Under the pieces are notes generated by a model that saw only the letters and a program-made list of their open reading frames with translations, did no database searches and was not told the DNA's origin. Below, one piece after another: positions 1,040-35,251 of a stretch of DNA of 64,000 nucleotides (the first letter of the stretch is position 1; every line of letters starts with the position of its first letter). The stretch lies in contig CAZQIV010000022.1 in assembly GCA_964593705.1 (NCBI GenBank), positions 1,416 to 65,415 on the forward strand, given 5' to 3'. The position numbers were made by a program, and so were the translations under genes. The stretch comes from an uncultured Lentimicrobiaceae bacterium (lineage in GTDB: Bacteria; Bacteroidota; Bacteroidia; Bacteroidales; 4484-276).

Positions 1040-1549
1040 ATGAAATCATTTATATCAAGAATTATGAGAAAACCAATATACCTGATACCTGTCCTTATCC
1101 TGGCAATGGCTTGCAACGGAATATACGAAAACGGGAAAGAGTTGGCAATGGATCTGAAATTTAGTGTAAATCAAATTTCAGTTGAAGACCTCAAAGTAAA
1201 ACTTGAAAACGATGAAGCATTCTACCTCATTGATGTACGGACAAATGCTGAATATGAGGAAGGATTCATCAACGATAAGTATGATTTCAACACCTATTTC
1301 AAACCGGTAATCCTTCCACTTGGTATTCTGGAATTTAAAATTGATGATCCGATTTACTGGGAGGATTTTTATGAAGATGTCCCCGAAAAAGAGTCAACCG
1401 AGATTGTCATTTACAGCCAGAACGGCGACCGTGGACTCCTGGCAGCCAACACTTTGCTTCAACTCGGATATAAAAATATTAGTAATCTTGATGGTGGCTA
1501 TGATAAATGGCTATCGCTTATTGGAAAAACTGAAGGAGCTGGAGAATAA
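1040..1549 (+). CDS. Rhodanese-like domain lipoprotein (canonical active-site Cys replaced by Ser)
   Basis: Signal peptide with lipobox LAMAC (alternative ATG at 1064). Rhodanese motifs FYLIDVRTNAEYEEGFI, IVIYSQNGDRG and LDGGYDKW. The loop position that normally holds Cys reads Ser. Confidence 0.75.
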   Translation: MKSFISRIMRKPIYLIPVLILAMACNGIYENGKELAMDLKFSVNQISVEDLKVKLENDEAFYLIDVRTNAEYEEGFINDKYDFNTYFKPVILPLGILEFKIDDPIYWEDFYEDVPEKESTEIVIYSQNGDRGLLAANTLLQLGYKNISNLDGGYDKWLSLIGKTEGAGE

Positions 1550-1585
1550 TTGAAAGCCGTGGAGATAAATAGTTATCCATACAAA

Positions 1586-2116
1586 ATGAATAAGAACATG
1601 AAAAATAATCATACAAGCTATATTAAATCCTACCGGGAGCTGGGTTTATTTATCGGATTATTCCTGTTTCTTTTAACAGGATGTGAACAGAAAATTCACT
1701 ATCAAAGTCTGGATGAAATGGTCGCAGATGCGAAATCAAGCGTAAGTTCTATTTCGGTTGAAGAATTCAAAACATTATTGGATTCAGGCAAGGAAATTAA
1801 GATTGTCGATTGTCGCCAGGGTGAAGACTTTATCGAAGCACATATCCCGGGAGCTGTAAATGTTTCGCGCGGAATGATCGGGTTTTCCGATGACTTAAGT
1901 AACAGAAGGGATGATATCTATATCTATGGTTACATTGATGGATGTTCAGCGCTTGCCGCTAAGACGCTTCATAAATTAAAATACAAACAAGTAAAAATGG
2001 TCGAAAACGGATGGGATGGATGGCAAAAAACATTTCCCGAAATTTTTGAAGAAGGAGGCGATGGATCCGTGAAAAAAGAAGCACCTGTTATAGAATCGGG
2101 TGGCTGTGGAGGATAA
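1586..2116 (+). CDS. Rhodanese-like domain lipoprotein with C-terminal GGCGG tail
   Basis: The ORF-track start at 1550 is TTG; the first ATGs are at 1586 and 1598. Lipobox LLTGC. Rhodanese motifs IKIVDCRQGEDFIEAHIPGAVNV and IYIYGYIDGCSALAAKTL. The protein ends ESGGCGG-stop (nt 2099-2116). Confidence 0.75.
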   Translation: MNKNMKNNHTSYIKSYRELGLFIGLFLFLLTGCEQKIHYQSLDEMVADAKSSVSSISVEEFKTLLDSGKEIKIVDCRQGEDFIEAHIPGAVNVSRGMIGFSDDLSNRRDDIYIYGYIDGCSALAAKTLHKLKYKQVKMVENGWDGWQKTFPEIFEEGGDGSVKKEAPVIESGGCGG

Positions 2117-2877: not shown

Positions 2878-3129
2878 ATGACACAAGAAGAATTAAAAGC
2901 AATTAAAGTTACTAAAATTGTAGATGCAAGAGGAACGGCATGCCCGGGACCTCTACTGGAAGCAAAAAAAGCCATCGGCACCATTGCATCAGGCGAAATT
3001 ATGGAAATACTCTCAGCCGATGAAGGCACAAAACGCGATATCCCAAAATGGGCAGGCAAAAAAGGGCACGAATATCTCGGAACAGTCGAGGAGTCGGGCT
3101 ACTTTAAAATCTATCTCAAAAAGGGCTAA
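2878..3129 (+). CDS. TusA/SirA-family sulfurtransferase
   Basis: 83 aa with the signature DARGTACPGPLLEAKKAI (CPxP motif). Confidence 0.85.
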   Translation: MTQEELKAIKVTKIVDARGTACPGPLLEAKKAIGTIASGEIMEILSADEGTKRDIPKWAGKKGHEYLGTVEESGYFKIYLKKG

Positions 3130-3135
3130 GCCGCG

Positions 3136-3528
3136 ATGGAAACGACTAATTCTGCTCCCAAAATACTTGTATTTTCAACGGAAAAGATTTCAGACCCCGC
3201 TATTGATTTAGCGGGATTACTGAAACAACATTATCCACCTACGGTGCTTACTGTAAATGTCCCTTGTTCGAGTGCAATTAAGCCCAGGTGGATACTCCAT
3301 GCTTTCGAAAAAGGTTTCGATGGAGTTTTCATTGCAGCAGATGGAACAGATTGTTCATTTAGCGAAAGCTGTACCGAAAAAACCGGGGAATTGGTAGGCA
3401 TCACCCATAAATTGATGGAGAAAAAGGGCATTGAACCTTCCCGCCTGAAAATGGCGGCAATATGTTCAGTCTGCTCCGAACCTTTTGTGAAACACATGAA
3501 AAATTTTGTAACTGCCCTATCTGCTTAA
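3136..3528 (+). CDS. MvhD/FlpD-like hydrogenase iron-sulfur (delta) subunit domain protein
   Basis: 130 aa. Cys pattern VPCSS, DGTDCSFSESC and AICSVCS, and FDGVFIAADGTDC, typical of MvhD-type proteins that partner HdrA. Confidence 0.7.
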   Translation: METTNSAPKILVFSTEKISDPAIDLAGLLKQHYPPTVLTVNVPCSSAIKPRWILHAFEKGFDGVFIAADGTDCSFSESCTEKTGELVGITHKLMEKKGIEPSRLKMAAICSVCSEPFVKHMKNFVTALSA

Positions 3529-3583
3529 AACTGGCGACATTATTCGGAAAACGATTTTCTCAACATAAAACGGCCAATAAAAC

Positions 3584-4876
3584 ATGACAAAACCAAACAA
3601 ATTTGATGCTTTAGTAATTGGAGGAGGTATTGCCGGCGAGGAGGCTGCATTAAACCTTGCTAACCTCGGCTACAGTGTGATCCTTGTCGAAAAGGATTAT
3701 TCGCTGGGAGGCAAAATGATACATCTCAGCAAGGTGTTTCCTACCCTCGATTGTGCGGCATGTATTACCACACCAAAGGTCTCGGAAACATCCAGACACC
3801 CAAACATTACAATTTACACACATTCAGTAATCGAAAACATTGTAAAGCACAGCGAAAACAATTTTACGGCCAACCTGGTTGAAAAGCCAAGGTATGTTAC
3901 CAGCGATTGCACCGGGTGTCAGCTATGCGAGGACAAATGCCCGGTTGTGGTTGATGACCAATATCAATACGACCTGGTTGGGAGAAAAGCTGTTTACGTT
4001 CCCTTTAGCATTGCTAATCCAAGGATTGCGGCCATCGATATCGACAACTGCATTTTGTGTGGTGCTTGCGAGAAAGTGTGCCCGGCGAATGCCATCGACT
4101 TTTCGCAGGAGGATATAGTGACTGAAATTAACGTTGCTTCTGTAGTTTTTGCTACTGGTTTTAAACTTTTCGATCCTACCCTTATTCCGCGTTATGGTTT
4201 TGGTAAGTTTAAAAATGTGCTTACTGCAATGCAGATGGAGCGACAGTTGGTTCCTACCAGGCCCTTCAATACAGTGTTGCGTCCCAAAGACGGCAAGATG
4301 CCGGATAACATCGCCTACGTGCTTTGTGTCGGTTCCCGCGATGAAACCGTGGGGAATCCGATTTGCTCGCAGGTGTGTTGCATGTATTCAACCAAACAGG
4401 CTCAACTTTTAATGGGTGCCTTGCCTATGGCCGATGTTACCATTTACTATTTGCATGTCAGGGCTTTTGGGAAAGGGTTTTGTGAATTTTACCAGCAGGC
4501 CAAAGGAATGGGCGTTGAATTTGTTAAAGCCAAAATTGGAAGAATCGATGAAAAAGAAGATGGGAATCTGCTGTTGAGGTACGAGGATTTCGAAGATGGT
4601 AAGGTTAAAGAAGCAGAACATGATCTTGTGGTATTATCGGTAGGGATTTTGGCCAATACCGATTTTTCGGGCATGTTCAAAAATGAAGCTATCAAACATG
4701 ACGATTTCAATTATATCAAACAGATTGATGAATTATGTTGTCCGGCAAAAACCAGCGTAGACGGTATTTTTGTTGCAGGCACAGCATCCGGGCCAATGGA
4801 CATCCCCGATTCAATACTCTCGGCCGGCGCAGCATCGGCTGAAACAGCAAGCTATATAAGAGGAGGTAAAAAATGA
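3584..4876 (+). CDS. HdrA-like FAD/FeS oxidoreductase, QmoA-like
   Basis: FAD fold VIGGGIAGEEAALNLANLG. Two ferredoxin motifs CTGCQLCEDKCP and CILCGACEKVCP. HdrA-type CSQVCC. The ~430 aa size matches QmoA-type proteins. Confidence 0.8.
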   Translation: MTKPNKFDALVIGGGIAGEEAALNLANLGYSVILVEKDYSLGGKMIHLSKVFPTLDCAACITTPKVSETSRHPNITIYTHSVIENIVKHSENNFTANLVEKPRYVTSDCTGCQLCEDKCPVVVDDQYQYDLVGRKAVYVPFSIANPRIAAIDIDNCILCGACEKVCPANAIDFSQEDIVTEINVASVVFATGFKLFDPTLIPRYGFGKFKNVLTAMQMERQLVPTRPFNTVLRPKDGKMPDNIAYVLCVGSRDETVGNPICSQVCCMYSTKQAQLLMGALPMADVTIYYLHVRAFGKGFCEFYQQAKGMGVEFVKAKIGRIDEKEDGNLLLRYEDFEDGKVKEAEHDLVVLSVGILANTDFSGMFKNEAIKHDDFNYIKQIDELCCPAKTSVDGIFVAGTASGPMDIPDSILSAGAASAETASYIRGGKK

Positions 4877-6807
4877 AAAGTAAAATTGGCGTTTACATTT
4901 GCCAGTGTGGTTCCAATATTTCCGATTATGTAGATGTGGATAAGGTGAGCCAGATTGTAGAGCAGTTGGAGGGTGTGGAGCTTTCGAAAATAACCATGTT
5001 TGCGTGTGCCGATTCCACACAGCAAGAAATGGTAAGCGACATAAAGGAAAAAAAACTTGATGCTATGGTTGTGGCATCATGTTCACCCAAACTGCACCTC
5101 GACACTTTCAGGAACGTAGCCATCAGGGCTGGTTTAAACCCATACAATTATGTGCAGGTTAACATACGCGAACAATGCTCGTGGGCACACTCTGATAAGC
5201 CGGCTGAAGCAACTGAAAAAGCAATTCGGCTAATCAAAAGCGGCATCGCCAGGGTTAAATATTCTCAGGCTTTAACAAAGATGACCATTTCGGCAGTAAA
5301 TGTAGTGGTAGTTGTAGGCGCCGGAATTGCCGGGATGCGTGCCGCCATCGAACTCGCTGATATGGGGTCGTACGTGTATTTGCTCGAAAGGGAATACTTT
5401 GTCGGTGGCCGCGCAGCACAATGGAACGAATTATTCACGACCAATGAAACCGGACGTGAAGTGATTACCAAACTCTACAACAAAATCATGGGGTACGACA
5501 GGATCACTCTTTTTACCGGGGCTGAAATTATTTCGAGTAAAGGAAGTGTGGGTAATTTTGATATACAGGTAGAAATAAAAGCGAGGCATATCAAACCAAA
5601 TTGCAAGCTTGATTGGGACAAATTTAAAAAAGCAGTTGATGTTTGTCCGGTTGAATTTGATGACCCGTTTAATTTTGGGCTCACAAAGCAAAAGGCGATT
5701 TACAAAAATTACCCAAGTGAGTTTCCGAAAATTCCTGCTATCGATACCGAGCATTGCACCAGATGCGGCAAATGCGTAGATATTTGTGACAAGATTGACC
5801 TGGATCAAAAAAATGAAATTGTAACTATTACGGCCGGCGCATATCTTTTAGCTACAGGCTTTGATCCTTATGAGCCTAAAAAAGGCGAATTTGGATACCA
5901 TGAAATCGACAATGTGGTAACACTTCAACAACTTAAACGAATGATTGAGTTGAATGAAAATGAGTTGATATACCACGGGGAAAAAATTAAAAACATCGCT
6001 TACATCTATTGTGTAGGAAGCCGTCAGTCGAAAGGAGAAAATAAATACTGCTCACGCTATTGTTGTAGTTCGGCCATTCACACAGCCATCCTGATTAAAG
6101 AAAAATATGCTGGAATAAATAACTTCCACTTTAACCGGGGCATCAGGACGTATGGTAAACAGGAGCTGCTTTTCAAACAAGCTTCAACCAATGGTGATAT
6201 TTTCCTTCAGTCGTTTGAGGAGGATCCCCCTTCGATTGAAAAAGTAAATGGCACAACCAGGGTTAAAATTAACGATTTCCTAACCCAGGGAATGGAATTG
6301 GAAACTGAAGCCGACCTGGTGGTGCTGGTAACCGGAATGGTTCCACGTCAGAAGGACACTATCGGAAACATCCTGAAAGTACCCATTGGGCGCGACAAGT
6401 TTTATAACGAAATCCATCCCAAACTTCGTCCCGTAGAAACAGTGATTGATGGGATACACATTGCAGGTGCATGCCAGGGACCGAAAAACATCACCGAATC
6501 GGTAAACTCAGCATTATCCGCCGCAGTCAAAGCCGACTCATTGGTAGGCAAGGAAAAAATTGAACTTGAGCCAACCATGGCTAAAATTGATCCGGGTTTA
6601 TGCGTATGGTGCGACAAATGCGCCGCGGCCTGTCCCTACGATGCAATTACTAAAAGTGATAAAAATGGTAAGGCTATAGCAGATGTTAACAGCGCAAACT
6701 GCAAAGGATGCGGAATGTGTCTGCCGGTTTGCCCGGAAAATGCAATACAACTTATTGGCTATACCGATGTCGAAATGGAAAGTATGATCGAAGCATTGGT
6801 ATCGTAA
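4873..6807 (+). CDS. HdrA-like FAD/FeS oxidoreductase, QmoB/HdrA-like
   Basis: Start overlaps the upstream stop (ATGA). N-terminal IGVYICQCGSNI domain, FAD fold VVVGAGIAGMRAAIELADMG, CSRYCCSS, and three CxxCxxCxxxC motifs (CTRCGKCVDIC, CVWCDKCAAACP, CKGCGMCLPVCP). Confidence 0.8.
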   Translation: MKSKIGVYICQCGSNISDYVDVDKVSQIVEQLEGVELSKITMFACADSTQQEMVSDIKEKKLDAMVVASCSPKLHLDTFRNVAIRAGLNPYNYVQVNIREQCSWAHSDKPAEATEKAIRLIKSGIARVKYSQALTKMTISAVNVVVVVGAGIAGMRAAIELADMGSYVYLLEREYFVGGRAAQWNELFTTNETGREVITKLYNKIMGYDRITLFTGAEIISSKGSVGNFDIQVEIKARHIKPNCKLDWDKFKKAVDVCPVEFDDPFNFGLTKQKAIYKNYPSEFPKIPAIDTEHCTRCGKCVDICDKIDLDQKNEIVTITAGAYLLATGFDPYEPKKGEFGYHEIDNVVTLQQLKRMIELNENELIYHGEKIKNIAYIYCVGSRQSKGENKYCSRYCCSSAIHTAILIKEKYAGINNFHFNRGIRTYGKQELLFKQASTNGDIFLQSFEEDPPSIEKVNGTTRVKINDFLTQGMELETEADLVVLVTGMVPRQKDTIGNILKVPIGRDKFYNEIHPKLRPVETVIDGIHIAGACQGPKNITESVNSALSAAVKADSLVGKEKIELEPTMAKIDPGLCVWCDKCAAACPYDAITKSDKNGKAIADVNSANCKGCGMCLPVCPENAIQLIGYTDVEMESMIEALVS

Positions 6808-6845
6808 TCGGTTGTTTTAACTGAAACAGCATATCGAAAGGAAAA

Positions 6846-7118
6846 ATGGAAAAGACAATAGATATTATCAAAGAAAAAAGGACAGTTCCCGAAGCGCTTA
6901 AAAGCAGGGTTAAAGAGGTAAACAAAATTAAGAGAGCGATAAAAAACGCACTGAAGGAGGAGCCTAAAACCATACCGCAGATTGCTCAGGAAACAGAACT
7001 TCCCCAGGACATAATTACTTATTACCTGATGACAATGAGGAAATTTGGAGAGCTTGAAACTGATGAGATTGATGATATGGATGAATACTTTACGTATAAA
7101 TTAACCACTAAGAAATAA
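6846..7118 (+). CDS. Small acidic hypothetical protein, possible winged-helix fold
   Basis: 90-aa ORF tightly packed between the two flanking cluster genes. The segment PKTIPQIAQETELPQDIITYYLMTMRKFGELE looks HTH-like. No recognised family. Confidence 0.4.
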   Translation: MEKTIDIIKEKRTVPEALKSRVKEVNKIKRAIKNALKEEPKTIPQIAQETELPQDIITYYLMTMRKFGELETDEIDDMDEYFTYKLTTKK

Positions 7119-7123
7119 GCATA

Positions 7124-8275
7124 ATGTCGAAAATTAATCCGGGCTTTGCAAATGAACTTAAGGAATTCGGGGCACTAGATTTCAATGCCTGTTACAACTG
7201 CGGCAATTGCACGGCAGTTTGTTCCCTGTCGGATAGCGACAATTCCTTTCCCAGAAAAATGATACGCTACAGTGTTTTGGGTTTGGAAGATGAAATACAG
7301 GCCTCTGTAGATCCATGGCTGTGCTATTACTGTGGCGAGTGTAGCGAATCCTGCCCGAAAGGTGCTAATCCGGGAGAATTGATGATGTCGCTGCGAAGAT
7401 ACCTGACCTCAAAATACGACTGGACCGGTTTGGCAGGAAAATTATATACTTCAAAAGTTTGGGAGTTTGGTACTATTATAGTTTTAGCAGCTGTGATCCT
7501 GCTACTGTTCGTAGTTTATCATGGCCCGATGACAACAGAATTAACATCCGAAGGCGGAGTAAAACTCAACACTTTTGCGCCCTGGAAACAGGTTGAAATA
7601 GGCGATTGGATCATGGCGGGTTTACTATCCTTTTTCCTGGTTACAAACATTTTTAATATGTACTTAAAAATGATCTGGAAGGATAAAACACTAAAAATTC
7701 CAATAAAGATCTACTTCAAAGAATTCTGGAAAATAATCCTGCATTTTTTCACCCAATGGCAATTCTCGAAATGCGACAGCCTTGAAACTAAAAAATCATT
7801 TAATATAAGTACCTACTGGGTAATCCACTTTTTGTTGATGACGAGTTATGTACTGATGTTTACATTGATCGTGGTTTTCCTGGGTTGGTTTCAAACAGAC
7901 AACATCTACGCCTGGTGGCATCCTCAAAGACTTTTGGGTTACTATGCAACCATTGGACTAACCTTGGGTGTTGTTTACTTTTTTTATGAACGATTAAAGA
8001 AAAACAACGAAAAAAGCAAACACTCCCACATCACCGACTGGACATTTTTAGTGCTTCTTTTTCTTACTACCATCTCAGGAATCCTGGTTCATATTTTTAG
8101 GATTTATGGGATGCCATACGAAACTTACTACATGTATGTTTTCCACATCATGGTGCTTTTCCCAATGCTGATGATTGAGGTACCTTTCTCCAAATGGTCA
8201 CATCTGGCGTACAGGCCGTTTGCAATTTATTTTAATACGGTAGCAAATGCTGCCAGGAAAATAGCCTTAAAATGA
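7124..8275 (+). CDS. Membrane FeS subunit, QmoC-like (HdrC-like di-cluster domain fused to a multi-TM HdrE/NarI-like domain)
   Basis: N-terminal CYNCGNCTAVCS and CYYCGECSESCP motifs followed by about six hydrophobic helices containing conserved His residues. 383 aa. Confidence 0.7.
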   Translation: MSKINPGFANELKEFGALDFNACYNCGNCTAVCSLSDSDNSFPRKMIRYSVLGLEDEIQASVDPWLCYYCGECSESCPKGANPGELMMSLRRYLTSKYDWTGLAGKLYTSKVWEFGTIIVLAAVILLLFVVYHGPMTTELTSEGGVKLNTFAPWKQVEIGDWIMAGLLSFFLVTNIFNMYLKMIWKDKTLKIPIKIYFKEFWKIILHFFTQWQFSKCDSLETKKSFNISTYWVIHFLLMTSYVLMFTLIVVFLGWFQTDNIYAWWHPQRLLGYYATIGLTLGVVYFFYERLKKNNEKSKHSHITDWTFLVLLFLTTISGILVHIFRIYGMPYETYYMYVFHIMVLFPMLMIEVPFSKWSHLAYRPFAIYFNTVANAARKIALK

Positions 8276-9987: not shown

Positions 9988-12507
9988 ATGAAAACACGAA
10001 ACTTTTTTTTGATTTTAATCTTTGGCATTACGAGCACAGTATTTGGCCAAGGTTTTTATGACATCAACACCATCAACACCATCAAAATCACTTTCGAAGA
10101 ATCCAATTGGGATTACCTGCTCGACCAGCTTGTGTCAGCAGGAAATAAAGACCGCCTGATGGGTTCTGTTGCCATCAACGGGCAGGTTTTCGACAGCGTG
10201 GGCGTACGTTACAAAGGAAACAGTTCCTATCGGGCCAATCAAATAAAAAATCCATTGAATATCAAACTTGATTACATTATTGATGATCAGGAGATAGAAG
10301 GCTATGGAACCCTGAAACTGGCCAATGTATATAAAGATCCCAGCTTTGTTCGCGAAGCGTTAAGTTACGAAATTGCCCGGAAATACATGCCAGCCAGCCA
10401 GGCCAATTACACCAATGTATATGTAAACGGAACCCACCTCGGGCTTTATACCAGTGTTCAGGATGTGGATAAATTTTTTATGCGTACGCATTTTGGTGGC
10501 GATGAAACCGTAAGAGTTAAAGGTGAAATTGAAAGTAACGCCATGCCCGGGCAAATGGGTGGTGTTTGGGAATATTATGGTACCGACACAACAGATTATT
10601 ACGATTACTACGCAATGGAGTCGGATCATGGATGTGCAAAACTGGTAGAATTTATCGACACACTCAATAACCACAACACCTATGTTGATCAGGTGTTGAA
10701 CATCGACAGGCACTTATGGTTTTTAGCTTTCCAAAATCTTTTGGTAAACCTCGATAGTCCCATCAACAACCCGCAAAACTATTACCTTTTTGAAGATGGC
10801 ACCGGCAGGTTTAATCCCATTCCCTGGGATTTGAACGAAAGTTTTGGGGTGTTCACTACTTTGCAAAGTGGTGGAAATCTCAACCCCTATCAATTGCAAC
10901 ACCTTAGCCATGTTGTAAATCTCACCAATAGTGAATATCCTGTTATTCGCAAAATTTTGAGTGATGATACCTATCGCCTTATGTATGTTGCACATATAAA
11001 AACCATGCTCGAAGACAATATTTCTAATGGATAGTACGAAACCCGCGCCCTGGAAATTCAGGATATCATCGATTCGGATGTGCAAAACGACCCCAATAAA
11101 TTTTATAGCTATTCTAATTTTATCAGCAATATACATAGTAGCACCGGTGGTGGAGGTTGGCCACCATCTCCTGGCATAATTGGCATAACGCAGTTGATGG
11201 ATACCCGCGCCAGTTGGCTATCCGGTTTGTCCGAATTCCAGGCGCAAGCCCCGGAAATTACAAATATAAGTTACAGCCCGGAAGTTGTAAGCCCCAACAC
11301 CGAGCTTTGGTTTTCTTCAACAGTAAGTTCTGCAAACCAGGTTTATTTGGCTTATCGCCAGAGTTCTACGGCTGCCTTTCAAAAAGTTGAGATGCTCGAT
11401 GATGGCAACCACAACGATGGGAATGCCGGCGATGGCGTTTATGGTGCATCCATTGTGGCAGGAAGTTCTGATATTCAATATTATATTTATGCCGAAAATA
11501 ACAGTGCAGCAGCTTTCTCTCCACCCAATGCCGAATATGAATTTTATTCGATAGAAATCAACAGCACTTTGGTTATCAACGAATTTATGGCCGATAATGA
11601 AAGTGCAGTAGCCGACCAGGATGGTGAGTACGACGACTGGGTGGAAATATTTAATACCGGAGCATCGGCATTGGCGATTGGTGGATACTATTTGAGCGAT
11701 GATGCTTCGGAACCAGAACAATGGACATTTCCTGATACCACCATTGCTGCCGGGGGCTACCTGGTGGTTTGGGCCGATAACGATGAAGAACAAGAAGGTC
11801 TGCATGCCAATTTTAAACTTTCCAAATCGGGCGAAAGCATCATCATGTCCAACCCTGCCTTGAGCATTGTGGATGAATATTCCTTCGTCGAGCAAATTAC
11901 AGATAGTACCACAGGACGGTTTCCAAACGGTACCGGCGATTTTGTAATAATGCCCCCAACTTTTGGGGCAGAAAATCAAAGTTTAATAAATGCATATCAA
12001 ACCATCACCATGCCAGATGGCTGGAGTGGAATTTCATCCTGCCTTGAGCCTCTCGATGGCATGGTTGAAAATATGTTTGATGTGTTGACCAACGAAGACG
12101 ACCTGATAATTTTGCAGAATTTTTTCGAGGTATATTGGCCTGCTGCTAATTTGAACACCATCGACCAAAATGGTGGCTGGGATTCAAAGAGTGGATATAT
12201 GCTTAAAGTAGATGGAGATCAGCAAATCGTTATCGAAGGAACATATATTGCCGACAAAACGCTGACTTTTGATGAAGCCGGGTGGTATCTGATTCCGGTA
12301 TTAAGTAATTGTAATGTGTCGGTAAACGAATTATTCGAAGATGTTGTGGATGATCTTGCTATTATTAAAGAAGTGGCCGGTATAGGTATTTATTGGCCTG
12401 GAGTAGTGCAAACGCTGTATTCTCTGGAACCCGGAAAATCGTACCTCGTAAAATTTGATGGCCCGGTGTCAGTTACTTTTCCCGAATGTACAGATGATAC
12501 AAAATAG
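9988..12507 (+). pseudogene. CotH kinase-family / lamin-tail-domain protein paralog interrupted by an in-frame TAG (11032-11034)
   Basis: ORFs 9988-11034 and 11080-12507 share one frame (both nt mod 3 = 1). Together they are colinear with the intact paralog 13927-16200. The TAG aligns with a Trp codon (ENGWYEE) of the paralog. CotH-type core LNIKLDYIIDDQEIEGYGTLKLAN...VNGTHLGLYTSVQDVDKFF. LTD motif LVINEFMADNESAVADQDGEYDDWVEIFN. Confidence 0.8.
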
Positions 12508-12541
12508 TCGGTAAAAATAGGAATCCCCAGAGAAAATTGTA

Positions 12542-12574
12542 AGTCAGGGCGTGACTTTAAGCCACACCCTGACT
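12542..12574. repeat. AGTCAGGG hairpin element, third copy
   Basis: agtcagggcgtgactttaagccacaccctgact lies directly after the stop of the CotH pseudogene, possibly acting as a terminator. Confidence 0.7.
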
Positions 12575-12664
12575 GTGTTAAAGTTAAATGTTAGGTTTAA
12601 TGGTAGGATCGGGAAATCGGTTTTGCCTTTTTTTTGGTTTATCCAGGCTTGCTATCCCCGCTTT

Positions 12665-12706
12665 GGGTTCGCAGCCCCGAGGTACGAGGGGATCGCAACC
12701 CTGAAT
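12665..12706 (+). repeat. REP-like unit upstream of the RAYT gene
   Basis: gggttcgcagccccgaggtacgaggggatcgcaaccctgaat. Its end gcaaccctgaat is the inverted complement of attcagggttgc at 13364-13375. Confidence 0.8.
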
Positions 12707-12761
12707 GTTTGAAAAGTGCATGTGCATTTTTTTTTATTTTTATACGCTAAATCTTGAAAAG

Positions 12762-13343
12762 ATGCCATCAAAGAAAATTTTAACACCAGTTGAATCCGGG
12801 TTTACCTACCATATTTACAATCGTGGGAATAATTACCAGGATGTGTTTTTTAATGATGAAGACTATCTATTATTTTTGAATAAATTCAAATTCTATCTTG
12901 GAAATTATTGTTCTCTTTTTGCTTTTGCTTTATTGCCAAATCATTTTCACTTTCTTTTACGATCAAACGAAAATAATGCTGTGTCACAATTTAGTCAGCA
13001 ATACCTGAAATTCATACTCAGTTATACCAATAAAATCAATTATCGAATGAAAAGAAACGGCAGTTTGTTTTTAGCCCGATTCAGGAGGATTAAAATTGAA
13101 GACGAGGATTACCTGAAAAGATTGCTTTATTATATCCACCATAATCCAGTTAAACATGGAATTACTGAAAACTTTAAAACCTATAAATTTAATTCATATC
13201 AGATTTTCTTGTCCGATAAACCAACCGGTCTTGCCAGAAACGAGGCTATCTCCTGGTTCGGTGATTTAAAGGATTTTGCTGAATATCACGATTATTTTCA
13301 TGAAGAAGATATTATCAGAAAACTGACTTTTGAGGATGATTAG
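12762..13343 (+). CDS. REP-associated tyrosine transposase (RAYT) / IS200-like Y1 transposase family protein
   Basis: HUH motif LPNHFHFLL and Tyr motif YYIHHNPVKHG. About 190 aa from the ATG at 12762. Bracketed by inverted REP-like repeats. Confidence 0.8.
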   Translation: MPSKKILTPVESGFTYHIYNRGNNYQDVFFNDEDYLLFLNKFKFYLGNYCSLFAFALLPNHFHFLLRSNENNAVSQFSQQYLKFILSYTNKINYRMKRNGSLFLARFRRIKIEDEDYLKRLLYYIHHNPVKHGITENFKTYKFNSYQIFLSDKPTGLARNEAISWFGDLKDFAEYHDYFHEEDIIRKLTFEDD

Positions 13344-13363
13344 GTATGAATATTTATTTATAA

Positions 13364-13765
13364 ATTCAGGGTTGCAGCCTCATGGGTTCGCAGCCCCTCC
13401 CGAAGGGATTCCTATGGAGGAGGCACGAGGGGATCGCAACCCTACAACCCGAAAAGGATTGATGCAAACTTTTAAGCTATATTTTCTATCCTTCTCACAA
13501 GTATTATTGCATTTATCTTTCTCAGATTTTTGCAAATTGAAATTATAGGGTTGCGATCCTTTCCCTGCGGTCAAGGCTGCGAACCCAAGCCAAGATATTC
13601 CGGCCTGGGTTCGCAGCCCCGAGGTACGAGGGGATCGCAACCCTGAAATACCCTAAAACAGAATCCCTCAGGAATTTATCACTATGTTCCAGGGTTGCGA
13701 TCCCTTCCCTGCGGTCAGGGCTGCGAACCCACGCCGGGTTGCTGGCCCCGAGGAAGGAGCATGCC
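13364..13765. repeat. BIME-like cluster of REP units in alternating orientation
   Basis: Forward units gggttcgcagcccc..ggggatcgcaaccc at 13384-13443 and 13607-13644. Inverse units agggttgcgatcc..ggctgcgaaccc at 13548-13586 and 13691-13730. One further degenerate unit follows. Confidence 0.85.
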
Positions 13766-13926
13766 ACAAGCCTGGAAGTACAATCTACGATTTCAAGTTT
13801 TTCAATGTGTCCCAAATCCCCCCCATTCGTTGATAAAATTTCCCAATCTGTTGATTTTCTTTTTTATTCTATACTTTAGTTGCCACTTTTGTTGAATATT
13901 TAAATAGACTCAAATACATTTAAAAC

Positions 13927-16200
13927 ATGAAAACAAGAAACTTTTTACTTTTCTTACTCATTGGCTTGATCAACACTAGTTTCAGCCAAGGATTTTACGA
14001 CATGAACACCATTAACACCATCGAGGTTACTTTCGAAGAATCCAACTGGGATTACCTGCTCGATCAAATGGCTGCGGCCGGAGATGAAGAGCGACTGATG
14101 GGCTCGGTGAACATCAACGGGCAGGTGTTCGACAGTGTGGGTGTGCGCTACAAAGGCAATAGTTCATACAATCAAAACCAGGTTAAAAACCCGCTCAACA
14201 TTAAGCTCGACTACATTATCAACGATCAGGAAATTGAGGGCTATGGCACCCTGAAACTTGCCAACGGGTTTAAGGATCCCAGTTTTGTACGCGAGGCTTT
14301 GGGCTATGAAATTGCCAGGAAATATTTCCCGGCCAGCGAAACCAACTACGCCAATGTTTATGTTAACGGAACACATCTTGGGCTATATACCAGTGTGCAG
14401 GACGTGGATAAGTTTTTTATGCGTACACATTTAGGAAGTGATGAAGGCGCAAGACTCAAGGGTGAAATTAGCGGTGGCGGCGGCCCTCCTTCGGGCACTG
14501 TATGGAAATATTACGGTAATGATTCGACCGATTATTTTAATTATTACGCACTGGAATCAAATATTGGATGGACCGAATTGATTCATTTCCTCGACACCCT
14601 GAGCAATCACACCAGCTATGTTGACCAGGTTTTAAACATTGACAGGCATTTGTGGTTTTTGGCCTTTCAAAATTTGTTGGTTAACCTGGATAGTCCCATT
14701 AATAATCCGCAGAATTATTATATTTTTCAAGATGGCACGGGTCGATTTAATCCTATTCCCTGGGATTTGAACGAAAGTTTTGGCGTATTCAGAAGTTTGC
14801 AAGGTGGCGGTAATTTAAACACAAATCAGTTGCAACAATTTAGCCCGTTCAACAATCTTACAAGCAACGATCATCCCATCATTAGTAAAATTCTGGGCAA
14901 CGACACTTACAGTAAAATGTACATTGCACACTTTAAAACGATGGTGGAAGAAATATTTGAAAATGGCTGGTACGAAGAAAGGGCGTTAGAAATTCAGGAT
15001 ATCATAGATGCGGATGTGCAAGCCGATCCAAATAAGTTTTATTCTTACAGCAACTTTATCAGTAATATTAATAATAGTGTAGGTGGTGGCCCCAATGCGG
15101 TAATAGGAATAACACAGTTAATGGAAGCCCGTGTTAATTATCTGCTCGGATTGGATGAATTTGAAGCACAGCAACCCGAATTCTCAAACATCAGTTTTAG
15201 CCCGGAGCAACCCTCGCCAGGCACTGAAATTTGGTTTAGCGCAGAAGTTGATTATAGCACACAGGTGTATTTATTATACCGACAAAGCTCCACGGCTACA
15301 TTCCAAAAATCTGAAATGTTTGACGATGGTAATCATAACGATGGTGCTGCCGGTGATGGTGTTTATGGAATTTCACTTGTGGCCGGAAACACCGGGATTC
15401 AGTATTATTTCTATGCTGAAAATAATGATGCGTCCGCGTTTATGCCGACACATGCCGAATATGAATTTTATACCATTGCCATAAGCAGCGATTTGGTAAT
15501 TAACGAATTTATGGCCGACAATGAAACTGCCGTGGCCGATCAGGATGGAGAATATGACGATTGGATTGAATTTTACAACAATGGCACCGAAGATATTGTA
15601 TTGCTGGGATTCTACTTGAGCGATGATGCCGGCGAACCCGATCAGTGGACATTTCCCGATACTACAATTGCTGCAGGTGGATATTTAATTGTTTGGACTG
15701 ATAATGATGAAGATCAGGATGGTTTACACGCCAATTTCAAACTCTCAAAATCGGGCGAAAGCATTTTACTTTCGGATGCAACTTTAAATATTATTGATGA
15801 GATTGCTTTTGAGCAACAAAAAACGGATACCACTACCGGAAGATTTCCAAACGGAACCGGCGGGTTTAAATTTATGATTCCTACTTTTGGTGGGGAAAAT
15901 GTTGATGAAATTACTGCAGTTGAAGAAATAGCGCAAATAGAGTCGGCATCCTTAGGGGCTTATCCGAACCCATTCAATAATCAGTTGCATTTTGTAATTA
16001 AGCTTGAAAACACATCAAGTGTTAGCCTTATGGCGCATAATGTTTTTGGCCAAATGGTAACTTTGAAAGACACGGAAGGATTGCCTGCCGGAACACACGA
16101 ATTGACCATTAGCACGATTGATTTACCTGCTGGTTTATGGATTTGCAGTATGAAAACAGATGAACAGATACGGACCATAAAGCTGATGAAAACAAAGTAG
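13927..16200 (+). CDS. CotH kinase-family protein with lamin-tail domain and T9SS C-terminal sorting domain
   Basis: Signal peptide, CotH core and LTD (LVINEFMADNETAVADQDGEYDDWIEFYN). The C-terminus LGAYPNPFNNQLHFVIKLE...GLWICSMKTDEQIRTIKLMK is typical of Por/T9SS sorting domains. Confidence 0.85.
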   Translation: MKTRNFLLFLLIGLINTSFSQGFYDMNTINTIEVTFEESNWDYLLDQMAAAGDEERLMGSVNINGQVFDSVGVRYKGNSSYNQNQVKNPLNIKLDYIINDQEIEGYGTLKLANGFKDPSFVREALGYEIARKYFPASETNYANVYVNGTHLGLYTSVQDVDKFFMRTHLGSDEGARLKGEISGGGGPPSGTVWKYYGNDSTDYFNYYALESNIGWTELIHFLDTLSNHTSYVDQVLNIDRHLWFLAFQNLLVNLDSPINNPQNYYIFQDGTGRFNPIPWDLNESFGVFRSLQGGGNLNTNQLQQFSPFNNLTSNDHPIISKILGNDTYSKMYIAHFKTMVEEIFENGWYEERALEIQDIIDADVQADPNKFYSYSNFISNINNSVGGGPNAVIGITQLMEARVNYLLGLDEFEAQQPEFSNISFSPEQPSPGTEIWFSAEVDYSTQVYLLYRQSSTATFQKSEMFDDGNHNDGAAGDGVYGISLVAGNTGIQYYFYAENNDASAFMPTHAEYEFYTIAISSDLVINEFMADNETAVADQDGEYDDWIEFYNNGTEDIVLLGFYLSDDAGEPDQWTFPDTTIAAGGYLIVWTDNDEDQDGLHANFKLSKSGESILLSDATLNIIDEIAFEQQKTDTTTGRFPNGTGGFKFMIPTFGGENVDEITAVEEIAQIESASLGAYPNPFNNQLHFVIKLENTSSVSLMAHNVFGQMVTLKDTEGLPAGTHELTISTIDLPAGLWICSMKTDEQIRTIKLMKTK

Positions 16201-34075: not shown

Positions 34076-35251
34076 TCATAAATATCGATTTAATTCTGCC
34101 AAAGCCTTGATCATATCCCTTTCCAATTCAAGCGAAGCTTTTACACTTTCGTAATAAATGGAGCGTTCAAGCATGTAATTAATCAAAGAAATCTCGCCTT
34201 TATCCAGGGCTTTTATTAACAACCCCGAATTATCAATAGTTTGCAGTTTTGATTTATAATCGCTTACGTTATTTTGAAGGCCAGTGGCTTTTGTATGTAA
34301 AATCATTAGCCGATTATACAATTGCACCTTATTGTCGCTTGCCAGGTTTTCGGCGGCCAATACGTTTGCTTTCGCAAATTTCACCTTGTTTTTGTTTTCC
34401 CATAAGGGGATGGACAAGCCAAAGCTTACGCCCTGGAACTCTTCGCCGACTACTTTTTCGCTCATGTAGCCTGCCTGAATCTTAGGCAAGCTCATTGCCC
34501 GGTTCAGACTAACTTGCTTTTGGCTGAGTTCTATCTCTTTTTTCAACCAATTCAACAAGGGGTTATTTTGCTCGGCTTGTGCGTACCATTGCTCAAAATC
34601 GGAAGGAATTGTTGTGTCGGGAAACTCACTCCGGGTAAATTCGATGGGAATCCCTCCATTTAGCCGGGCTAATTCACCAAGCATAGCTACTCTTTCGATG
34701 GTAAGCGATTCCATTTCCTTTCTGAGATTAAGCAAATTTAATTGAGCTTTATTGTATTCCAATATATTTGTTTCGCCCGCATCGAGTTTTGCTTTGTAGG
34801 AGTTGGCAATACTTTCGGCATTCGAAATTCTTTTTGAAAGTTCTACCGTTAAGGCATTGGTATAAATCAAATCGTAACAGACCAAACGTGCATTGAAAAG
34901 TAGCTCTTTACCTTGCTTTTGAAATTCAAGGGCTACTTGTTCATTTTTAATATCCGATATTTGATTTTTATAGCCATAAGCAGTTGGGAAGTCAAAGGTC
35001 TGTTTGGCACTAAAATCCGTGCGGTTACCAACCACATCATTCCCCCACAAATAGTTGAATTCTATTTCAGGGTTTTGCAGGTAAATTCCGGTTTTATTTC
35101 CCAACTTATTGGCTTCTGCTCTTTGTCTTAAAGCAGAAAGCGTAGTGTTATTCTTTTCAATCTCATTTAAAACACTATCAATATTGTTTTGAGCGAAAAG
35201 GGATATGCTGAATGGTACGATACAAATTATCGTTATAATTATTTTTCTCAT
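34076..35251 (-). CDS. TolC-family outer membrane efflux protein (CzcC-like)
   Basis: Signal peptide, 391 aa of coiled alpha/beta repeats. Start overlaps the stop of the RND pump gene. Confidence 0.8.
   Translation of the reverse strand: MRKIIITIICIVPFSISLFAQNNIDSVLNEIEKNNTTLSALRQRAEANKLGNKTGIYLQNPEIEFNYLWGNDVVGNRTDFSAKQTFDFPTAYGYKNQISDIKNEQVALEFQKQGKELLFNARLVCYDLIYTNALTVELSKRISNAESIANSYKAKLDAGETNILEYNKAQLNLLNLRKEMESLTIERVAMLGELARLNGGIPIEFTRSEFPDTTIPSDFEQWYAQAEQNNPLLNWLKKEIELSQKQVSLNRAMSLPKIQAGYMSEKVVGEEFQGVSFGLSIPLWENKNKVKFAKANVLAAENLASDNKVQLYNRLMILHTKATGLQNNVSDYKSKLQTIDNSGLLIKALDKGEISLINYMLERSIYYESVKASLELERDMIKALAELNRYL

Follow-up and report, generated by a model that had tools for sequence, protein, structure and literature searches.

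The cysteine of the C-terminal GGCGG arm of SoxY is an established sulfur-binding site (PMC6067878). A relay from this cysteine along three cysteines of the YeeE-like protein SoxT1 has been proposed, in work that explicitly calls the actual periplasm-to-cytoplasm route of sulfane sulfur via YeeE/SoxT-type proteins unknown (PMC11582611), and SoxY-bound sulfur is the presumed target of the rhodanese SoxL, which would strip it from the SoxY arm (PMC3368242). Here, we report on an operon at the start of a 64,000-nucleotide (nt) stretch of DNA (the window) from an uncultured Lentimicrobiaceae bacterium (Bacteroidota; GenBank assembly GCA_964593705.1, contig CAZQIV010000022.1, positions 1,416 to 65,415, forward strand), which encodes two predicted rhodanese-like lipoproteins, Rhd1 and Rhd2, next to a YeeE-family transporter. 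Rhd2 ends in GGCGG, and we read it as a candidate sulfur carrier. An initial reading, made from the letters of the window without database searches (the sequence-only reading), had proposed a rhodanese-fold scaffold with a SoxY-like carrier arm.

Rhd2 and SoxY are alike in being exported, in carrying Gly-Gly-Cys-Gly-Gly past a folded domain with the Cys as the only plausible working group, and in having a sulfur-free partner encoded next door (SoxZ there, the Cys-less Rhd1 in the window). They differ in fold, a beta-sandwich in SoxY and the rhodanese alpha/beta fold in Rhd2, and in what bears the motif, a short arm extension in SoxY and a predicted disordered, acidic linker of about 20 residues in Rhd2. 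Tailed rhodaneses also differ from SoxY in a predicted lipid anchor and a variable ending (GGCG, GGCGG, GCG, or GC), and no SoxAX, SoxB, or SoxCD genes lie near them. At E values up to 0.01, only rhodanese families were matched in Pfam and NCBIfam, with no SoxY family among them, and the structure search gave no SoxY match. Homology to SoxY, or fusion with it, was rejected because neither family nor fold matched; the C-terminal pentapeptide is all that is common. What stands of the scaffold-and-arm proposal is the rhodanese core, the invariant tail, and the predicted disorder of the arm, and the SoxY likeness shrinks to a convergent pentapeptide.

Flexible C-terminal peptides that move a redox- or sulfur-active Cys between sites are also found in DsrC/TusE (the C-terminal arm) and in thioredoxin reductase (the GCUG tail), which are cytoplasmic and have unrelated folds and motifs other than that of the tailed rhodaneses. 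Sud of Wolinella succinogenes (PDB 1qxn), PspE, and SoxL of Allochromatium vinosum resemble the tailed rhodaneses as exported, single-domain rhodanese-fold proteins of extracytoplasmic sulfane-sulfur transfer. In those proteins, which are soluble and not lipoproteins, the active-site loop Cys does the work and there is no C-terminal Cys arm, whereas in the tailed rhodaneses the arm is invariant and the loop Cys dispensable.

TsuA/TsuB (YeeE/YeeD) and the YTD cluster (YedE-TusA-DsrE-Chp1-Chp2) share with the window operon a three-Cys YeeE-family channel, a TusA-like acceptor, and a DsrE-like protein (PMC11073785, PMC13047784, PMC13293266). The extra genes of the YTD cluster encode DsrF/H-like subunits of the cytoplasmic DsrEFH type II complex (PMC13047784, PMC13293266, PMC13490349), whereas in the window operon the two additional products are predicted lipoproteins of the rhodanese type, bound for export, and genes for MvhD and a QmoABC-like complex come after them. 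The identification of Rhd1 and Rhd2 with Chp1 and Chp2 was rejected because of this DsrF/H-like identity of the latter.

The C-terminal arm of Rhd2 and the cysteines of Rhd1

Relatives of Rhd2 were collected from 5.8 billion proteins (24 clusters, 38 to 100% identity, 162 to 185 amino acids), and two more came from genome assemblies (loci L007 and L008). SGGCG followed by G, D, or nothing is the C-terminus of 26/26 Rhd2 orthologues, all of which have an N-terminal lipobox-type Cys; the endings among the 24 are GGCGG (15), GGCG (8), and GGCGD (1). Column entropy in the 24-sequence alignment is zero at S171, G172, G173, C174, and G175 and 1.8 to 2.8 bits at linker positions 158 to 166. The AlphaFold2 model, built with the family alignment, has a predicted local distance difference test (pLDDT) score of 89 to 97 over core residues 41 to 150 and of about 40 over residues 156 to 176, consistent with the last 20 or so residues being a disordered, free arm. 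Between the same loci, cytoplasmic operon proteins are 55 to 89% identical and the rhodaneses only 38 to 58%, which makes the tail the most constrained piece of a fast-evolving protein. A sequencing error at the stop codon was ruled out, as the identical protein occurs in independent assemblies from NCBI, JGI, ENA, and Logan (6 contigs) and every orthologue stops at the same position. As judged from this alignment, the Rhd2 tail is beyond chance. The GGCGG-stop ending (positions 2099 to 2116) behind a flexible-looking linker is therefore as the sequence-only reading had described it, and its own reservations, that the tail might be absent or variable in orthologues or might owe its stop to an error, found no support. 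The structure model that it had called for is in keeping with a free arm.

Rhd1 and Rhd2 both show the parts of a lipoprotein signal peptide (positive n-region, hydrophobic h-region, lipobox), and the lipobox Cys is invariant in the alignments (C25 in 11 Rhd1 orthologues, C33 in 24 Rhd2 sequences), in line with the lipoprotein signal peptides first read at LAMAC and LLTGC. Foldseek returned rhodaneses only as top matches of the Rhd2 model (probability 1.00), with single-domain GlpE and 6mxv superposing, and the family profile matched 6mxv (E = 1e-42) and periplasmic Sud (1qxn; E = 3e-9). The canonical catalytic Cys, the first residue of the C-X4-R loop, is replaced by Ser in Rhd1 and by Gly in Rhd2, both as originally noted from the loops. 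Rhd2 belongs to the rhodanese homology superfamily but, because the catalytic Cys is absent, is not a canonical sulfurtransferase. The shifted Cys of the Rhd2 loop (positions 1943 to 1945), also seen in the sequence-only reading, occupies the canonical Arg position, five residues past that of the canonical Cys; it is present in 12/24 orthologues, and most of the others keep Arg there. A second Cys, that of the DCR motif (C76), is nearly invariant (at least 90% conserved in the 24-sequence alignment). In BLASTP, the Rhd2 segment IVDCRQGEDFIEAHIPGAVNV aligned with Cdc25B (E = 2e-5), the DCR Cys falling on the Cys of the Cdc25 motif, and the Rhd2 family profile matched Cdc25B chains across the same stretch. 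That Cdc25 residue is the "back-door" Cys, able to bond with the catalytic Cys; by way of the DCR Cys, thiol chemistry may be retained behind the Rhd2 loop.

Rhd1 ends in ...GKTEGAGE and is without a Cys tail in this lineage. Where its loop has Ser, orthologues read IIIYCKKGDRG, and the canonical loop IIIYC(K/G)xGxR/K with the catalytic Cys is kept by 8/11 Rhd1-type sequences; six of these eight carry a tail of their own, EE(G/S)GCG(G). The combination of loop Ser and Cys-less tail was found only in the window Rhd1 and its two closest relatives (P0122 and P0123). Because of this distribution, the normal system, as read from the orthologues, is one of two arm-bearing lipoproteins, an active Rhd1 and an Rhd2 without the canonical Cys. 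By the same comparison, the ancestral and commonest state is a catalytic-Cys rhodanese with an arm, the Cys-less pair of the window is derived, and both Rhd1 cysteines (loop and tail) were lost in this lineage. The absence of the canonical Cys from both proteins, a point made by the sequence-only reading, thus holds for the window and fails as a trait of the Rhd1 family. Compared with relative L096, the former tail of Rhd1 (its last eight residues) is fully diverged. The ratios of nonsynonymous to synonymous substitution rates (dN/dS) against the same relative are 0.16 for Rhd1, 0.13 for Rhd2, 0.055 for YeeE, and 0.085 for TusA; at 0.16, Rhd1 is still under purifying selection and not decaying.

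In Rhd1 proteins, the lipidated Cys is followed directly by GIYENGKELA, a motif with strong conservation. The full string C-x-G-I-Y-E-N-G-K-E-L-A (window positions 1112 to 1145) is almost invariant in Rhd1-type proteins, and the distant YeeE-adjacent protein P0231 has GIYEDSKEM. This segment might serve in docking.

The family grew when its profile was run against 1.84 billion representatives clustered at 50% identity: among the best 150, which were inspected, 30 close with GGCG(G/D/E), GCG, or GC behind an acidic linker, and 28 of the 150 add to the tailed Rhd2 orthologues. They include multidomain tailed forms (P0129, with three rhodanese domains, P0160, and P0227) and a natural fusion, P0132, in which an Rhd1-type and an Rhd2-type domain share one signal peptide and one tail. 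A lipobox-like Cys behind a hydrophobic stretch was present in 49/55 tail-bearing proteins checked, and about half of the 55 keep the catalytic Cys. A later search added two tailed sequences from a candidate division KSB3 bacterium, ending in ...DDGGGC and annotated at source only as "hypothetical protein" or "rhodanese domain-containing," for a total of 57 tailed exported rhodaneses. Among the approximately 195 ordinary rhodanese matches that these searches also returned, none has Cys at any of the three C-terminal positions.

Linkage to YeeE and the surrounding operon

A YeeE gene lies within a few genes of the tailed rhodanese in 10/10 informative loci, including that of the KSB3 bacterium (two phyla). 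The control set comprised 78 ordinary-rhodanese loci from a family-alignment scan of genome contigs on the general motif HIPGA, which recovered mostly ordinary rhodaneses and, as true family members, only L007 and L008. YeeE lies within 8 kb in 3/78 of these controls (Fisher P = 6e-11 versus 10/10, uncorrected for relatedness). The position next to a YeeE importer noted by the sequence-only reading recurs in the related loci. Minimal modules of the form TusA-YeeE-tailed rhodanese occur in L091, in L092 (YeeE, then the three-domain P0129), and in the KSB3 locus L095.

All three channel Cys motifs of the S. thermophila YeeE structure (PDB 6leo) are kept in the window protein (QRARFCIV, LAGGCAVG, and GLGCTIG). 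Scored with NCBIfam models, it reached 94 bits for TsuA (cutoff, 400) and 124 bits for the selenium-linked YedE/FdhT model, its best partial match (cutoff, 350). The full-length gene is visible in L087 (positions 4223 to 5437). In L095 (positions 5765 to 7023), YeeE is split into adjacent genes of 177 and 234 amino acids upstream of the tailed rhodanese. In L089 (positions 6090 to 7166) and L094 (positions 3629 to 4696), yeeE is separated from the tailed rhodanese by genes for an anion-selective porin of the OprO/P type and for a periplasmic, TST-like rhodanese with tandem domains; these insertions hint at an anionic sulfur substrate crossing the outer membrane.

The operon order is TusA (78 amino acids), YeeE (404 amino acids), Rhd1, Rhd2, a DsrE_2-like protein (137 amino acids), and a second TusA (83 amino acids), followed by MvhD/FlpD, two HdrA/Qmo-like flavoproteins, a 90-amino-acid protein, and a QmoC-like subunit (Table 1). 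A divergent Crp/Fnr-type regulator is encoded upstream. The same operon was found in the window and in L087, L003, L005, L007, L008 (a Bacteroidota metagenome-assembled genome), L089, and L094; L001 has the same downstream genes on a contig that ends before the yeeE position. The DsrE_2-like protein is 58 to 88% identical across all full-length operon copies.

Table 1. Positions of the operon genes and of the sequence features of Rhd1 and Rhd2 in the window
Feature	Position	Strand	Evidence or remark
YeeE/YedE-family sulfur transporter, 404 amino acids	1-1034	+	Pfam Sulf_transp E = 1.6e-39; start about 180 nt before the window
Rhd1, predicted lipoprotein, rhodanese-like	1064-1549	+	PF00581 E = 1.4e-14; alternative start 1040 used by gene callers
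Rhd1 lipobox LAMAC	1100-1114	+	Cys at 1112-1114; read from sequence
Rhd1 active-site loop IVIYSQNGDRG	1403-1435	+	Ser 1415-1417 at catalytic Cys position
Rhd2, predicted lipoprotein, rhodanese-like, with C-terminal candidate carrier arm, 172 amino acids	1598-2116	+	PF00581 E = 9.8e-17; alternative start 1586
Rhd2 lipobox LLTGC	1670-1684	+	Cys at 1682-1684; read from sequence
Rhd2 DCR motif	1808-1816	+	Cys 1811-1813, in IIDCRQ strand
Rhd2 active-site loop IYIYGYIDGCSAL	1916-1954	+	Gly 1928-1930 at catalytic Cys position
Rhd2 linker, variable, acidic, Gly-/Pro-rich (EGGDGSVKKEAPVIE)	2051-2095	+	Column entropy; pLDDT about 40
Rhd2 tail S-G-G-C-G-G and stop	2096-2116	+	Ends ESGGCGG; tail Cys 2105-2107; TAA 2114-2116
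DsrE_2-like sulfur transferase, 137 amino acids	2445-2858	+	PF13686 E = 1.4e-7
TusA-family sulfur carrier, 83 amino acids, CPGP motif (...GTACPGPLL...)	2878-3129	+	PF01206 E = 5.5e-23
MvhD/FlpD-like protein	3136-3528	+	PF02662 E = 6.5e-28
Two HdrA/QmoA/QmoB-like flavo-iron-sulfur proteins	3584-4876, 4873-6807	+	NCBIfam HdrA2 E = 4.8e-135, 1.1e-171; both under curated cutoff
Conserved protein, 90 amino acids, between HdrA-like genes and QmoC-like gene	6846-7118	+	Same position in L001, L003, L005, L007, L089
QmoC-like membrane iron-sulfur/haem-b subunit, last gene of conserved operon	7124-8275	+	NF038018 qmoC E = 4e-62, 211 bits (cutoff, 300)

In the Qmo-like module (positions 3136 to 8275, + strand), the MvhD domain is encoded by a gene of its own, upstream of the pair of HdrA-like genes, and the module is linked to DsrE and TusA, not to AprBA. 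It does not qualify as QmoABC, as QmoC scores below the cutoff, the MvhD domain is separate, and no aprBA is present in the window or related loci. The 90-amino-acid protein is present in every full operon copy at 40 to 72% identity, with weak helix-turn-helix-like Pfam matches (E of about 1e-3) and no NCBIfam match, and may belong to the Qmo-like complex as a subunit that has escaped recognition.

The spacer between Rhd2 and DsrE (positions 2117 to 2444) measures 328 nt in the window against about 80 nt in L096, a close relative, and some 50 nt at other loci. The extra length of about 250 nt (positions 2165 to 2410) holds two GC-rich palindromes, CTTCCCCTCGAGGGGAAG (about 2264 to 2284) and CTCCCCCTCAAGGGGGAG (about 2328 to 2347), and the pattern CCCCTCNAGGGG occurs within the window only in this spacer (0.03 chance matches expected). 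This additional stretch resembles a small repeat or hairpin element inserted within the operon.

The remainder of the window contains no Sox, Dsr, or Apr genes, and SoxZ, SoxAX, and SoxB were found neither in the 64-kb window nor in any of the related loci. Rfam and tRNA scans of the window found nothing, and promoter and terminator scans gave sites no more frequent than in shuffled sequence. Elsewhere in the window, positions 9988 to 16200 (+ strand) encode two CotH-kinase-like proteins with lamin-tail domains, one of them with a type IX secretion sorting domain; the pair of open reading frames at 9988 to 11034 and 11080 to 12507 looks like a split copy of the 757-amino-acid gene at 13927 to 16200. 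Positions 34076 to 55023 (- strand) encode two RND efflux systems with outer-membrane factors, one with a CusB-like adaptor bearing a heavy-metal-binding domain. Next to these lie genes for a cation diffusion facilitator and for a multicopper oxidase that ends in a type IX secretion tail. The region has the look of an island for metal resistance, with no relation to the sulfur operon. Several window proteins have type IX secretion tails, fitting Bacteroidota.

A candidate periplasmic sulfur carrier and its alternatives

With a probability of roughly 55%, Rhd2, and in most related genomes Rhd1 too, would be a periplasm-facing, lipid-anchored sulfur carrier with the tail Cys thiol as its working group. 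We favor this reading because the tail is invariant next to a hypervariable linker, the arm is predicted to be disordered, and the linkage to YeeE extends across two phyla; because export and lipobox signals, minimal modules, the P0132 fusion, the YeeE channel cysteines, and purifying selection on both rhodaneses agree with it; and because the SoxY arm, the SoxT1 relay proposal, and the presumed action of SoxL on SoxY-bound sulfur set a precedent.

The N-terminal lipid would tether the rhodanese-fold body to the membrane, leaving the disordered acidic linker, tipped by the invariant GGCG(G), to move. Soluble anionic sulfur (thiosulfate, polysulfide, or tetrathionate) would enter the periplasm, in some loci via the operon-encoded OprO/P-type porin, and its sulfane sulfur would be mobilised at a rhodanese site. 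That site would be the catalytic Cys of Rhd1 in most genomes and, in this lineage, presumably the pair of DCR Cys and loop Cys of Rhd2. Held on the tail Cys as a persulfide or thiosulfonate, the sulfur would be brought by the arm to the periplasmic mouth of the adjacent YeeE. There it would move from one to the next of the three channel cysteines, reach TusA in the cytoplasm, and continue by way of DsrE to the Qmo/Hdr-like menaquinone-linked complex. Sulfur loading of the tail Cys and its hand-over to YeeE are what we infer from this arrangement, as are the substrate and the net direction of flux (import for reduction, oxidation, or assimilation).

A more specific version is tentative, and we would sooner bet against it than for it: the GGCG(G) arm would enter a YeeE/SoxT-type channel by its periplasmic funnel and the persulfide would pass thiol to thiol via the three cysteines to TusA. 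Protein-bound sulfane sulfur would then cross the membrane by a general, Sox-independent mechanism, the "transporter" being the middle of a protein-to-protein relay and not a carrier of free ions, and the arm would have converged with that of SoxY for the same docking job.

Several points weigh against the carrier reading. The sulfur chemistry assigned to the tail is drawn from sequence and a structure model. The tail ending varies (GGCGG, GGCG, GGCGD, GCG, or GC), unlike the strict GGCGG of SoxY, so recognition by Sox-type enzymes is unlikely, and neither the operon nor the window contains Sox genes or other periplasmic redox enzymes. With the canonical catalytic Cys in neither lipoprotein here, the loading step has no obvious catalyst. 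The YeeE subfamily of the window falls below every curated NCBIfam cutoff, and the Fisher P value overstates independence, the sampled loci being phylogenetically related. Both proteins are predicted lipoproteins, assigned by pattern and conservation, and either the inner or the outer membrane may hold them.

The cysteines of Rhd2 also allow a reading in which the tail Cys acts within its own molecule: as a resolving or gating thiol, it would fold back onto the catalytic, loop, or DCR Cys and bond with it in a disulfide or trisulfide. The site would thereby be protected, regenerated, or regulated, in the manner of the thioredoxin reductase C-terminal tail or the Cdc25 back-door Cys, and no sulfur would be carried to YeeE. 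About half of the tail-bearing proteins do have a catalytic Cys in the same chain, the nearly invariant DCR Cys aligns with the Cdc25 back-door position, and a disordered linker of about 20 residues could let the arm reach its own active site. That linker, however, exceeds the length needed for this purpose, the tail is invariant even in many Rhd2 proteins without an active-site-loop Cys (P0015 to P0024), and the tight linkage to TusA-YeeE is left unexplained; we consider this reading unlikely.

We give little credence to a selenium (or other soft chalcogen or metal) version of the carrier reading, in which the arm would take a Cys-S-Se adduct to a YedE-type selenium importer. It draws on the best NCBIfam matches: the transporter scores best with the YedE/FdhT selenium metabolism membrane protein, and its neighbours with the YedF and rhodanese LYCAU selenoprotein models, all below cutoff. 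These matches are in fact far under the curated values (e.g., 124 bits versus 350), the window holds no selD or selA, and the operon runs on into DsrE, TusA, and a Qmo/Hdr-like quinone-linked complex, suggesting bulk dissimilatory sulfur flux. Heavy-metal efflux genes are present at 35 to 55 kb, outside the conserved operon. A metal-binding role, prompted by the CusABC-type efflux and multicopper oxidase genes in that region, was rejected because those genes are absent from the other loci.

Least probable of all is a tail that serves as a signal for sorting, processing, or anchoring, or that is a low-complexity end without function. Gly-rich C-termini can serve as processing signals, and the case for a sulfur role comes from sequence and modeling. 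However, no hydrophobic segment lies behind the motif, no operon contains a sortase-, rhombosortase-, or protease-like gene, and the one invariant Cys is Gly-flanked and encoded within a sulfur-trafficking operon. The remainder of the Rhd1 tail diverged completely once its Cys was lost in this lineage, which shows that the motif is kept only as long as the Cys is used.

Meaning for sulfur transfer across the membrane

In the searchable literature, a scope that left subscription-only papers outside, we found no description of rhodaneses with a C-terminal Cys arm, as the sequence-only reading had supposed, and neither Pfam, NCBIfam, nor the source annotations have a name for the tailed family. 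On the carrier reading, Rhd2 would carry or transfer sulfur with the help of an arm that evolved by convergence, in what looks like an undescribed hand-over of sulfur from outside the cytoplasm to an importer. The rhodanese and the arm, separate in SoxL and SoxY, are united in one polypeptide in Rhd2, and the presence of a SoxY-type GGCGG arm on an unrelated fold would be independent evidence for the pentapeptide as a functional sulfur-presenting solution. Encoded beside TusA-YeeE in at least two phyla, this compact tailed family is, by its genetic linkage, a candidate for the missing donor on the periplasmic side.

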